A stretch of DNA of 64,000 nt from Candidatus Acidiferrum sp. (GTDB lineage Bacteria; Acidobacteriota; Terriglobia; Acidiferrales; UBA7541): assembly GCA_036522195.1 (NCBI GenBank), contig DATDGF010000089.1, positions 13,673 to 77,672 of the forward strand, in the 5' to 3' direction. Position 1 is the stretch's first letter. Every line of letters begins with the position of its first letter. Below are positions 61,438 through 64,000 of this stretch, piece after piece. A program made the translations under genes and the position numbers. The notes below the pieces were generated by a model that worked only from the letters and a program-made list of their open reading frames with translations, did no database searches and had not been told where the DNA came from.

Positions 61438-61878
61438 CTAGTCGAGGGCTTCGAACTGTTGATCCGTTTTTTCGAATTCAGGATCGCTTTGCAAGATCAC
61501 TCTCGGAGACGCGTTCTTGAACGGTTCCTCCGAGGGAATGCGCGCGACCCAGCGCTGCTCGGAAAGTTTTTCGTGCGAGCTGAAATACAACCGCACAAGT
61601 AAACTCACCTTACCGTTAGGCGTTGCTGCAGAATTTTCTGCCCCCGCCACATGCGATTTACCTTTTGTTTTGCCTTTAGTCTTAGCGGCAGGTGCCGGTT
61701 TGTCAGCCGCCTCAGCATTCGTAGGCGCTTCCCCAGCAGCGCTCTCGGGGCGGTCGAGTTTGTATTGCAGTCTCTTGTCCAGGCGAAAGGCTTGCTTCCA
61801 GCCGTCGAGTTTATGGCGCGCGAGTTGCGCCTTCTCCTCATCCGTGCCAAAATCCAGCTTGATATAAATGTGGGACAT
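61438..61878 (-). CDS. Hypothetical protein with Lys/Ala-rich internal linker
   Basis: MSHIYIKLDFG..VSLLVRLYFSSHEKL; coding-like. Confidence 0.65.
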   Translation of the reverse strand: MSHIYIKLDFGTDEEKAQLARHKLDGWKQAFRLDKRLQYKLDRPESAAGEAPTNAEAADKPAPAAKTKGKTKGKSHVAGAENSAATPNGKVSLLVRLYFSSHEKLSEQRWVARIPSEEPFKNASPRVILQSDPEFEKTDQQFEALD

Positions 61879-62090
61879 GAATTCAGTCTGCGACGCGCTC
61901 CATTCTAAGTCAAGATGGCCCCAGCCGCAAAAGTTCGCGCTGGCCACTCTGAAAACTCCGGTACTTTACGCGAGGTGGGAATGATTTGGTATGGAAGGGG
62001 CCAGTCCATGAGGACTTATCTCTTTTCCGCTTGCAAACTATGGCGTTTCGCGCCATAGTATCCATCGCTCGGATCCGGCTTGCGTAACTC

Positions 62091-62507
62091 ATGCAAACTG
62101 CACTTCAACGTCGCCGCCGTTCATATTCCGCAAGCATCTGTTTGCTCGTAGTAGCCCTGCTGTACGCGCCGCTCGCTGGCGCCGCGTGGTCCTCCTATCA
62201 ATCCGCCTGTTGCACCTCGGATCAATGCCCTATTCCGGAGCATCATCACCATAAATCTCCGGCCGCGCCCACGAACCACATGGATTGCGGGCATGACATG
62301 GTTGGCATGATGGCATGCACCATGTCCTGCTGTCATGATTCCGATCGCTCGGCAGTTGCTTCGATCGCCTTTGTGCTGCCCCCAGTCCTAGTGGTCCCCG
62401 AATCGGCGGCCATCACGTCGCCAGTGCAGTTTGCCAAGCCCTTGGATTTTCCTCGTCCCATCGAACCTCTCTCTCCACCACCTCGTCTCGCTTTTGCGGT
62501 CGCTTAA
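62091..62507 (+). CDS. His/Cys-rich DUF2946/CruR-like upstream ORF
   Basis: N-terminal hydrophobic segment, CC..C..HHHH..HMDCGH..C..CCH, Pro-rich end PRPIEPLSPPPR; directly upstream of a TonB receptor. Confidence 0.7.
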   Translation: MQTALQRRRRSYSASICLLVVALLYAPLAGAAWSSYQSACCTSDQCPIPEHHHHKSPAAPTNHMDCGHDMVGMMACTMSCCHDSDRSAVASIAFVLPPVLVVPESAAITSPVQFAKPLDFPRPIEPLSPPPRLAFAVA

Positions 62508-62548
62508 GCACCGGCCATCTCTTCTCAACCTAGCTGATCCACGTAGCC

Positions 62549-62582
62549 TGCGGCGTCAATGCCGCACGCGAAACATTTTTTT
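62549..62582 (+). terminator. Hairpin + U-run between uORF and TonB receptor (possible attenuator)
   Basis: TGCGGC-GTCAAT-GCCGCA, then T7 at 62576-62582. Confidence 0.4.
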
Positions 62583-62599
62583 CGGGAGAAAAGTTTTCC

Positions 62600-64000
62600 A
62601 TGCGCAAAGTTTCGCCTTTGTTGTTGGTTTTGCTGTTACTCGGCGGCCGCTCGTTTGCCACGGTCTTCGGAACTGTTCGCGGCATCGTTCACGACCCGCA
62701 GCACCGGCCGGTAGCAGACATTGAAGTGGTTCTTAAAGCGAAGTCCTCGGAATATACGCAAACCGTGAAAACGGATGTCAACGGCGAGTTTCACTTCGAT
62801 GCCGTACCGCTCGCCGAATACATCGTCACGGTCTCGCATCAGGGATTCGCGACCGTCGAGCAAAGCGTCACCGTACTTTCCGGATCGGCCCCTGTATTGC
62901 ATTTCGAATTGCAGATCGCCACACAGAATCAATCGATTCTCGTGTCCGCCCCGCCCGCCCAGACGGAATCCGCGACGCCGACAACCATCGTGACTCGCCT
63001 GGAAATCCAGGAAACGCCAGGCGCGTCGCAGACCAACAGTGTCGCCATGATCACGGACTATGTGCCGAGCTCTTATGTCACGCACGATCAACTCCACGTC
63101 CGTGGCGGCCACCAAGTCAGCTGGTTGATTGATGGCGTGCCAATTCCCAACACCAATATCGCCAGTAACCTCGGCCCGCAAATCGACCCTAAGGACATCG
63201 ATGTGTTGGAGACCCAACGCGGCAGCTACACAGCCGACTACGGCGATCGCACTTACGGCGTGTTCAACGTCGCGCCGCGCACCGGATTCGAACGCAACAA
63301 CGAAGGCGAAGTGCTTCTGAGCGCGGGAAATTTCTATCAGACCGACGATCAAATCAATTTCGGCGGTCACACCAACAAGTTCGCCTACTACTTGAGCGCC
63401 AACGGCAATCGCACCAACCTCGGCTTGCAGACCCCGACCCCAAACGTCATCCACGATGCCGGCAACGGCTACGGCGGATTCGGCTCTTTGATCTACAATC
63501 TGGGTTCGCAGGATCAATTGCGCTTCGTCGGACAAATCCGGCGCGATTATTATCAGGTGCCCTTCGATCCGAATGACCCTAATCTCCCGGTCACGACTCC
63601 TCCCCAATATCTAAAGGACGCCAATCAGGAGAGCGATACGATCGCCGCATTTTCTTGGGTGCACACCTTCAGCCCTGGTCTGCTGCTCACGGTCTCGCCC
63701 TTCTATCACTACAACCGTGCCAATTACGAAAGCAGCCCCAACGACATCCCCGCTTCGACGACTCAAAAGCGCTCTTCCTATTATGAAGGCGGTCAAGCCA
63801 CCGTGACCTGGGTCAAAGACCGGAGCAATTTTCGCGCGGGGCTCTTCGGCTTTGCACAGCAAAATGATGAGCTCTTTGCTCTCGTCTATAACGACGGCAG
63901 CAACCCGCCACTAGAGCCGACTCCGGTTAACTCAACAGGTGGCTTGATTGCGGCCTACGCCGAGGAACAATTCCGCGCCACGTCCTGGTTGACCTTGAGC
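62600..64000 (+). CDS. TonB-dependent receptor with carboxypeptidase-regulatory-like N-domain (partial)
   Basis: Signal peptide, GTVRGIVHDPQHRPV..TDVNGEF, plug LHVRGG..IDGVPI..QIDPKDI; open to window end, so absent from the ORF track. Confidence 0.92.
   Translation, partial: MRKVSPLLLVLLLLGGRSFATVFGTVRGIVHDPQHRPVADIEVVLKAKSSEYTQTVKTDVNGEFHFDAVPLAEYIVTVSHQGFATVEQSVTVLSGSAPVLHFELQIATQNQSILVSAPPAQTESATPTTIVTRLEIQETPGASQTNSVAMITDYVPSSYVTHDQLHVRGGHQVSWLIDGVPIPNTNIASNLGPQIDPKDIDVLETQRGSYTADYGDRTYGVFNVAPRTGFERNNEGEVLLSAGNFYQTDDQINFGGHTNKFAYYLSANGNRTNLGLQTPTPNVIHDAGNGYGGFGSLIYNLGSQDQLRFVGQIRRDYYQVPFDPNDPNLPVTTPPQYLKDANQESDTIAAFSWVHTFSPGLLLTVSPFYHYNRANYESSPNDIPASTTQKRSSYYEGGQATVTWVKDRSNFRAGLFGFAQQNDELFALVYNDGSNPPLEPTPVNSTGGLIAAYAEEQFRATSWLTLS

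Follow-up and report, generated by a model that had tools for sequence, protein, structure and literature searches.

A putative metal-sensing leader peptide of the CutF/CruR class upstream of a TonB-dependent receptor gene in Candidatus Acidiferrum

The DNA analyzed here is a stretch of 64,000 nucleotides from Candidatus Acidiferrum sp. (assembly GCA_036522195.1, contig DATDGF010000089.1, positions 13,673 to 77,672), referred to below as the window. Near its 3' end, on the forward strand, a short open reading frame (ORF) lies directly in front of a gene for a TonB-dependent receptor. This leader ORF (62091-62507, ATG start) encodes a protein of 138 amino acids with 8 Cys, 7 His, 6 Met and 16 Pro, which is predicted from its sequence and homologues to be an exported Cys/His-rich peptide resembling CutF and CruR. 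The protein begins with MQTALQRRRRSYSAS, continues with the hydrophobic stretch ICLLVVALLYAPLAGAAW, and its C-terminal end reads ...PRPIEPLSPPPRLAFAVA / ...DFPRPIEPLSPPPRLAFAVA. An earlier interpretation, made by a model from the letters alone and called the sequence-only reading below, had described an ORF with an export-like hydrophobic N-terminus, a high density of Cys, His and Met and a Pro-rich end, and this description is accurate. The receptor gene follows after a gap of 92 nt. Its N-terminal 467 codons (62600-64000, forward strand) lie inside the window, and the gene continues past the window end. The encoded part comprises a signal peptide, a CarboxypepD_reg domain (Pfam PF13620, 1.5e-17), a TonB plug (PF07715, 5.5e-9) and the start of the barrel.

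The leader ORF is a real and conserved gene, far beyond what chance would give. At E<=0.01, a word-indexed search returned 493 homologous proteins. Over the full length, identity to the leader is 69-93% for the best 120 of them, and a Pfam domain is found in none of these 120. When the leader family was used as a profile against a database of 1.84 billion cluster representatives, the hits at E<=0.001 comprised 259 clusters at 50% identity. The leader protein itself has no Pfam or NCBIfam match at E<=1, and no second copy of the ORF occurs within the 64-kb window. A scan of one genome per species located 47 leader loci, nearly all in metagenome-assembled genomes (MAGs) of Acidobacteriota labelled Ca. 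Acidiferrum/Acidoferrum or "Acidobacteria gp2" (class Terriglobia, order Ca. Acidiferrales). Wherever the available sequence suffices to show it, a receptor gene is found on the same strand, 83-100 nt downstream. The intact receptors of the relatives have 720-779 codons, and full-length ones of 739-779 amino acids carry PF00593. Directly 3' of the receptor, a CusF-like gene (PF11604; HGDIPG.MPAMTM) is present in 9 loci, which include close and distant members of the family. This neighbor is the sole pointer to a metal, and it hints at copper rather than nickel, cobalt or zinc, all of which the sequence-only reading had listed.

Several loci are unusual. An Acidiferrales-type leader locus was also found in MAGs labelled Limnocylindria, Ca. 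Cybelea and Betaproteobacteria (L012, L013 and L046), labels that probably reflect binning errors rather than horizontal transfer. Twice, two separate leader loci lie within one MAG (L008/L010 and L030/L031, in SMAG_U11440 and SMAG_U5328), and genomes can therefore hold paralogous leader-receptor pairs. In three loci with intact leaders, the receptor frame is broken after 190, 543 and 38 codons (L016:5507-, L025:5502-7133 and L049:5501-, respectively), and these breaks are frameshifts, pseudogenes or assembly errors.

Architecture of the leader and its likeness to CutF and CruR

The organization of the leader was derived from alignments of 28 close and 44 diverse members of the family, the diverse set being 27-54% identical to the window protein. 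Residues 1-33 (62091-62189) form a putative export signal or signal anchor. After an Arg-rich N-terminus (n-region RRRR), there is a 17-residue hydrophobic h-region, ICLLVVALLYAPLAGAA, and A-G-A precedes W33. This part is unusually well conserved in both alignments (CLL..LLYAPL..AAW), and judging by these features, the leader appears to carry an N-terminal export signal with an A-x-A-like site. Residues 34-97 (62190-62381) make up the putative metal-sensing module, whose key columns are invariant or nearly so in the 28 and the 44 sequences. The potential ligands are CC40-41, QC46PI, HHH51-53, MDC66GH68 and C76xxxC80C81H82, and FVLP94-97 is likewise conserved; the length of the module ranges from 61 to 76 residues among relatives. 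In the window protein, C76-T-M-S-C80 is followed by C81-H82, and C76, C80 and C81 each occur in at least 90% of the sequences of the wide family. There is no CXXC motif among the conserved Cys of the leader, which are CC40-41, C46, C66 and C76-x3-C80-C81.

Between this module and the C-terminal motif lies a linker (residues 98-118, 62382-62444) that is unconserved in sequence and fixed in length: it has 21 residues in 44/44 sequences, at a majority-residue frequency of just 0.21. The last Cys (SCC motif) stands 47 residues ahead of PPP in 102/122 cluster representatives and 107/115 close homologues; in the window protein, there are 46 residues from C81 to S128 and 47 to the first Pro. A spacer of fixed length and free sequence is what a ruler for the ribosomal exit tunnel would be expected to look like, and it seems hard to square with a folded domain. 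The putative arrest module, DFPRPIEPLSPPPR (residues 119-132, 62445-62486), is delimited by its conservation, by its match to the CutF motif and by a codon bias described below. Its consensus is DFPRxIEPLSPPPR, in which P129-P131 are invariant or nearly so and S128 and R132 are conserved. The protein ends in a six-codon tail, LAFAVA, with the stop codon TAA at 62505-62507 (tail and stop, 62487-62507). The tail varies in sequence and is fixed in length: exactly 6 residues follow PPPR in 44/46 loci, and 7 residues follow PPP in 111/115 close homologues and 71/122 cluster representatives. AlphaFold2, run with the 44-sequence alignment, predicted a helix at residues 2-40 alone (predicted local distance difference test score, pLDDT, 90-97) and the rest of the leader without secondary structure (pLDDT 46-70).

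To our knowledge, CruR and CutF, both from Pseudomonadota, are so far the only nascent exported peptides with experimentally demonstrated post-transcriptional metal sensing. In Bordetella pertussis, CruR (Bp2923), a DUF2946 protein, is the exported product of an upstream ORF (uORF) before the TonB-dependent transporter BfrG (PMC9426467). A distance of 45 residues, conserved within 1-2 residues and functionally required, separates its CXXC from its C-terminal RAPP; the stall at RAPP keeps Rho away, and copper relieves the stall so that transcription terminates (PMC9426467). The mature part of CruR has been reported to be poorly structured (PMC9426467), and its arrest has been demonstrated in vitro (PMC12992588). 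CutF of Rhodobacter capsulatus (cutFOG) has a Sec signal, a C69xxHC73 motif and the C-terminal sequence P109EPEGPPPRL118 (PMC8456105). Here, copper induces a stall at PPP that involves EF-P and melts a stem-loop over the Shine-Dalgarno (SD) sequence of cutO (PMC8456105, PMC9973294, bioRxiv 10.1101/2025.02.05.636593), and both regulation and EF-P dependence require PPP (PMC8456105; bioRxiv 10.1101/2025.02.05.636593). "CutF-like" proteins have been defined by rules, which ask for a length below 150 amino acids, PP among the final 15 residues, a signal peptide and a neighboring gene on the same strand; they fall into 29 sequence clusters with differing Cys/His motifs, and TonB-type neighbors are second in frequency (PMC9973294). 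More generally, uORFs before TonB-dependent receptors have been reported to be widespread in Gram-negative bacteria (PMC10987492, PMC12992588).

The leader of Acidiferrales combines traits of both proteins. The sequence-only reading had proposed a CruR-like, metal-sensing uORF with "a different arrest motif". The motif is that of CutF rather than a new one, since IEPLSPPPRL is identical in 7/10 positions to PEPEGPPPRL (PMC8456105; bioRxiv 10.1101/2025.02.05.636593). Further points of likeness to CutF are the length below 150 residues, the Sec-type signal, a metal motif containing CxxxC, a predicted or observed lack of a stable fold, an intergenic region below 100 nt with (here predicted) RNA structure over the SD sequence of the next gene, and an association with copper genes, represented here by the CusF-like gene. 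The two differ in several respects. The target here is an outer-membrane importer, whereas that of CutF is a multicopper oxidase, which makes an opposite sign of control probable. The sensor here is much larger (8 Cys, HHH, HMDCGH), 7 residues rather than 2 follow PPP, the distance from Cys to PPP is 47 rather than 40 residues, no sequence match is detectable through Pfam DUF2946, and the phylum is Acidobacteriota.

With CruR, the leader shares its position directly before a TonB-dependent transporter, the export signal, a poorly structured mature part, a C-rich region past the ORF that could serve Rho, and the spacing from Cys to the Pro motif (45 in CruR and 46 here, counted from C81 to S128). 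It differs from CruR in having SPPPR and six further residues instead of RAPP, in having CxxxCC and additional Cys/His clusters instead of a single CXXC, and in its intergenic region of 92 nt, compared with 162 nt in Bordetella. The comparison with the DUF2946 model that the sequence-only reading had put forward as a check was negative: PF11162 does not match the leader at E<=1, and among the 44 diverse relatives there is one match only, at E = 0.49. The arrest peptides with RAPP or RGPP found upstream of Sec/YidC and metal genes (PMC10987492, PMC12992588) are similarly small exported or membrane peptides with a C-terminal Pro-Pro arrest site, encoded upstream of their target. They are defined by Arg-Ala/Gly-Pro-Pro, whereas the motif here is (E)P(L)S-PPP-R, a putative poly-proline stall of the EF-P type as in CutF. 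Surveys for RAPP/RGPP would miss the leader because no Arg stands two positions ahead of its prolines. CopL of Xanthomonas and Stenotrophomonas, regarded as CutF-like (PMC9973294), is similar by description, being a Cys/His-rich small ORF that is required in cis for the metal-regulated expression of the next gene; it differs in that it controls the copper oxidase copA.

Measured against the published definitions, the leader shows the features of CutF-like proteins: 138 amino acids, PPP at 129-131 with 7 residues after it, a signal judged from sequence features, the short gap to its neighbor and a Cys/His motif. It likewise shows the fixed Cys-Pro spacing, the probable export signal and the downstream TonB-dependent transporter of the CruR family, and it lacks what defines DUF2946 by sequence, that is, the profile match, CXXC and RAPP. 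The agreement with the CutF-like rules, the 7/10 motif and the CruR-like ruler therefore suggest a working of the CutF/CruR type and place the leader in the class defined by rules. Very probably, the leader represents an unannotated member family of this known class and not a new kind of switch.

Codon usage, RNA elements and transcripts

The codons of S-P-P-P-R are under a bias of their own. In the window, they read TCT CCA CCA CCT CGT (62472-62486). Among the 47 loci, the Ser codon of the motif is TCT in 72% (9% in the background), the three Pro codons are CCT in 68%, 68% and 85% (13%), and the Arg codon is CGA in 49% (11%). The background was taken from the adjacent receptor genes, where the codons favored in the motif are rare. 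The bias is limited to the motif; the remaining Pro codons of the leader ORF are CCT in 21%. The loci are kin to each other, so that these counts are not independent; nevertheless, the third positions vary. This usage fits slow decoding at a stall site, and also selection on the RNA UCUCCUCCUCCU.

The intergenic region and its margins contain a series of RNA elements. In the minimum free energy (MFE) fold, the stop codon of the leader is located in the loop of a hairpin, H1 (62498-62516; GGTCG/CGGCC), which is weak in the window (5 bp). Such a stop-in-loop hairpin is present in 34/47 loci, compared with 30% of control ORF stops. Its 5' arm consists of the last tail codons, its arms pair as GTCCT/AGGAC, GATCC/GGATC, GCGGC/GCCGC or TGCC/GGCA in different loci, and in the distant clade, compensatory changes are seen at three pairs. 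The tail, variable in sequence and fixed in length, is therefore better explained as an RNA arm than as protein. The tails finish in small non-polar residues (AVA, AAA, AAV, SVL, QVL). Such endings may simply follow from the GC-rich sequence of the hairpin arm (GCG GCC GC); alternatively, they could mark the C-terminus for degradation, which would agree with the reported rapid turnover of CutF.

Past the stop codon, the pyrimidine tract CTCTTCTC (62519-62526) is a second possible anti-SD element that pairs with the SD sequence in the MFE and consensus folds; its counterparts in relatives are CUCUCC (distant clade) or CUCUUCUC. It belongs to an 80-nt stretch that is rich in C and poor in G. The part that begins with the SPPP codons and ends 45 nt past the stop has 42% C and 20% G, compared with 29% and 29% for the loci overall, and the stretch may thus also resemble a Rho utilization (rut) site. 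It is followed by a conserved GCTGATC motif (62533-62539; GCTGATYMAC in the alignment of relatives) and by a conserved G+C hairpin, H2 (62549-62566), with the arms and loop UGCGGC-GUCAAU-GCCGCA (arms 62549-62554 and 62561-62566). In H2, 97% of the cells are paired, and one closing pair alternates between C-G and U-A among relatives. A run of seven T (62576-62582) begins 9 nt past H2. The SD sequence of the receptor, GGGAG (62584-62588), overlaps a local stem in the MFE fold, GGAGAA (62585-62590) with TTTTCC (62594-62599), so that the two together cover 62584-62599. Among the 47 loci, the conserved SD block is GAGGAGA.

Two of these elements had been taken by the sequence-only reading as parts of an attenuator. 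The hairpin and the T-run are both present and the hairpin is conserved; their meaning as an attenuator was not confirmed, given the 9-nt gap, a T-run that is specific to the window, and a scan with promoter and terminator consensus sequences that found no terminator in the intergenic region. Similarly, the short stem over the receptor SD sequence is part of the MFE fold as claimed, but its GGA/TCC pairing before the receptor ATG is retained in the nearest relatives alone.

Single-sequence folds of the intergenic region are no better than those of shuffled sequences (z = 0.15 and 0.03), and Rfam gave no match on 61900-62700 at E<=1. RNAalifold applied to all loci recovers the central hairpin alone owing to a poor MAFFT alignment of the 5' intergenic part, and the remaining elements were folded clade by clade. 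In the distant clade, RNAalifold finds a CUCUC(C):(G)GAGAG pairing in addition to H2. Pair counting in this clade gives 91% of cells paired, compared with 38-50% for slid controls; the anti-SD helix and H2 are invariant in this counting, hence covariation neither supports nor contradicts them. The folds place the receptor SD sequence in paired regions in nearly all loci; its predicted probability of being unpaired is 0.04 in the window and 0.10 on average over 46 loci. The S-P-P-P codons account for 57% of its pairing mass and the intergenic pyrimidine tract for 17%, and the duplex between the SPPPR codons and the SD sequence has a predicted mean energy of -11 kcal/mol.

Transcripts were sought by mapping contigs from eight soil metatranscriptome runs onto 61800-63600; these are assembled contigs, not reads. 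The leader ORF is covered in 7/8 runs by contigs of a strain that is ~97% identical, at a word depth of 4-11, which shows that the leader is expressed in nature. Two contigs start at 62082/62083. In three runs, contigs end at 62529, 62533 and 62534, inside or beside the GCTGATC motif, and in none of the eight runs does a contig cross 62535-62650 into the receptor, fragments of which were found separately at low depth. The contig ends are suggestive in that they are compatible with an RNA 3' end or a processing site ~25 nt past the stop, but they could equally be branch points of the assembly where strains diverge.

Proposed working and competing explanations

Taken together, these observations favor the view that the ORF encodes a cis-acting, metal-sensing leader peptide of the CutF/CruR class that sets the expression of the TonB-dependent receptor behind it, a reading to which we assign a probability of roughly two in three. 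The core of the sequence-only reading is thus upheld by the conserved ruler, the codon bias and the invariable linkage to a receptor, while three of its details are not. In such a system, the N-terminal signal of the leader would engage the Sec pathway, and the ribosome would pause at S128-P-P-P-R132 owing to three consecutive prolines, rare codons and the DFPRxIEPLS segment in the exit tunnel. During the pause, the 21-residue linker would span the tunnel, and the CxxxCC/His/Met module, 47 residues back, would have just emerged, so that the binding of a metal or the folding of the module could alter the duration of the stall. The paused ribosome would occupy UCU-CCN-CCN-CCU, a run of codons complementary to the receptor SD sequence, and the start of the C-rich, G-poor tract; from this position, the length of the stall would decide the synthesis of the receptor. 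In the preferred route, the stall frees the ribosome-binding site (RBS) and would thus be the ON state. As the target is an importer, the stall would be expected to mean ON, and the metal to cause release and OFF, as in CruR. We infer the stalling itself, the metal (most likely copper), the direction of control and the route, be it translation or Rho.

A number of results weigh against this picture. In the folding predictions, masking the footprint of a stalled or a terminating ribosome lifts the accessibility of the SD sequence only to 0.19 or 0.21. Under the footprint of the stalled ribosome, the second pyrimidine tract takes over the pairing with the SD sequence, and a shuffled upstream sequence already yields an accessibility of 0.17. 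Co-evolution between the SPPPR codons and the SD sequence is not significant in a permutation test for locus-specific matching (p = 0.10). The bias towards U-ending codons could be accounted for by rare-codon slowing alone. As DUF2946 does not match, the resemblance to CruR and CutF could be convergent rather than due to homology. Finally, a sensor with 8 Cys and HHH is far more elaborate than CXXC and would also suit a stable metal-binding protein.

The same leader might act on transcription instead. In this case, the stalled ribosome would shield the rut-like tract, and once the stall is relieved, Rho or RNA processing would end the transcript between the two genes. The composition of the tract speaks for such an output, and so does the precedent of CruR, the only characterized case before a TonB receptor, which acts via Rho (PMC9426467). 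The metatranscriptome contigs, which cover the leader in most runs, end shortly after it in three and never cross from it into the receptor, are also in line with it. On the other hand, contig ends may be branch points in the assembly graph and contig depth reflects expression poorly, the intergenic region is shorter than in Bordetella, and the C-richness is partly due to the Pro and Ser codons themselves. On balance, we consider this output possible but rather unlikely. The unmasking of the RBS is slightly preferred over it because the intergenic region is short, the SD sequence and the Pro codons are strongly complementary, and the codons of the motif are biased.

It is also conceivable, although we hold this view with little confidence, that the leader is an independently evolved arrest peptide and not a diverged DUF2946 protein. 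The SPPP mRNA would then have a double role, in the stall of the protein and as the anti-SD or rut core UCUCCUCCUCCU, its synonymous sites being selected for both, and the module with multiple Cys and His would respond not to the single Cu(I) of CruR and CutF but to another metal or a metal cluster.

A different explanation is that the ORF encodes a stable, exported metal-binding protein, such as a metallochaperone, a metallophore-like partner or an accessory of the receptor, which works with the receptor and CusF; EPLSPPPR would then be an interaction or sorting motif, and no stalling would take place. The strong purifying selection on the sensor (8 invariant Cys, HHH, HMDCGH), the export signal and the operon-like setting with the receptor, joined in 9 loci by the CusF-like periplasmic copper protein, would all suit such a protein, and Pro-rich ends can mediate protein-protein contacts, which was the first idea for CutF (PMC8456105). 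However, a linker of random sequence and invariant length and a 47-residue ruler are unexpected for a folded domain, and AlphaFold gives no structure past the signal helix. The bias towards rare codons, confined to S-P-P-P-R, indicates that selection acts on translation or on the RNA; the tail is variable as protein, yet it forms a covarying RNA hairpin around the stop codon; and neither PEP-CTERM nor any other sorting-signal model matches the leader protein. We regard this explanation as improbable.

Least probable is a classical attenuator, in which the hairpin at 62549-62566 and the T-run would form an intrinsic terminator with read-through set by the position of the ribosome on the uORF: the hairpin is conserved and the transcript contigs stop short of the receptor, but the T-run, too far from the stem and missing in most relatives, was not recognized as part of a terminator, and the contigs end upstream of the hairpin, not past the T-run. 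Some members of the closer clade have GCGGC/GCCGC both in the tail and in the hairpin arms, which makes the alternative pairings 1:2, 2:3, 3:4 and 1:4 possible, although the 2:3 pairing is weak in the window (-4.1 kcal/mol) and missing from the distant clade. A four-segment attenuator model of the trp type fits some close relatives but neither the window nor the distant clade.

If the leader is indeed a metal-sensing peptide of the CutF/CruR class, its family extends nascent-peptide metal sensing to the abundant, mostly uncultured Acidobacteria of soil. The family is invisible to the Pfam model and to searches for RAPP/RGPP motifs, and leaders of this kind are therefore under-counted. It offers a clean natural data set for the "molecular ruler", with its 21-residue linker, its 47-residue Cys-Pro distance and its selection at the codon level. 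The combination of a CutF-type PPP motif with a CruR-type importer target is useful for asking what determines whether the metal induces or relieves a stall. In addition, the receptor and CusF can be flagged as a candidate copper-uptake system in Acidiferrales.

Neighboring genes and upstream features

No substrate-specific NCBIfam family was found for the receptor, a search of the PDB sequences with the full-length receptor gave no match, and the N-terminal 467 residues contain no OprC-like CxxxM site because Cys is absent there. In the distant clade, the next gene after the receptor, on the same strand, is not CusF but an ORF for a secreted protein of ~446 amino acids with an amidohydrolase-like HxH motif (VDAHIHIW); examples are L027:7883-9226, L029:7850-9190 and L041:7872-9287, among others.

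Upstream of the leader, a promoter-like site lies on the forward strand at 62031-62059, with TTGCAA (62031-62036) and CATAGT (62054-62059) separated by 17 nt. A perfect 9+9 palindrome, ACTATGGCG-N5-CGCCATAGT, extends over the spacer and the -10 element (62037-62059) and is unique in the window, where 0.02 occurrences are expected. The closer clade shares TTGCAA, the 17-nt spacing, (C/T)ATAGT and the palindrome block, whereas the distant clade lacks them and has a different conserved upstream block, GGCTACC...CGTCTAA..GGTATCAT. The palindrome is a candidate operator of a possibly metal-responsive repressor, and transcriptional control may therefore be layered on top of the leader.

Further upstream, on the reverse strand (61438-61947), a divergent ORF of 169 amino acids, the start of which is uncertain, is rich in Lys and Ala in its middle part and matches no Pfam or NCBIfam model. 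An ORF of 167-184 amino acids holds the same position beside the leader in L001-L004.

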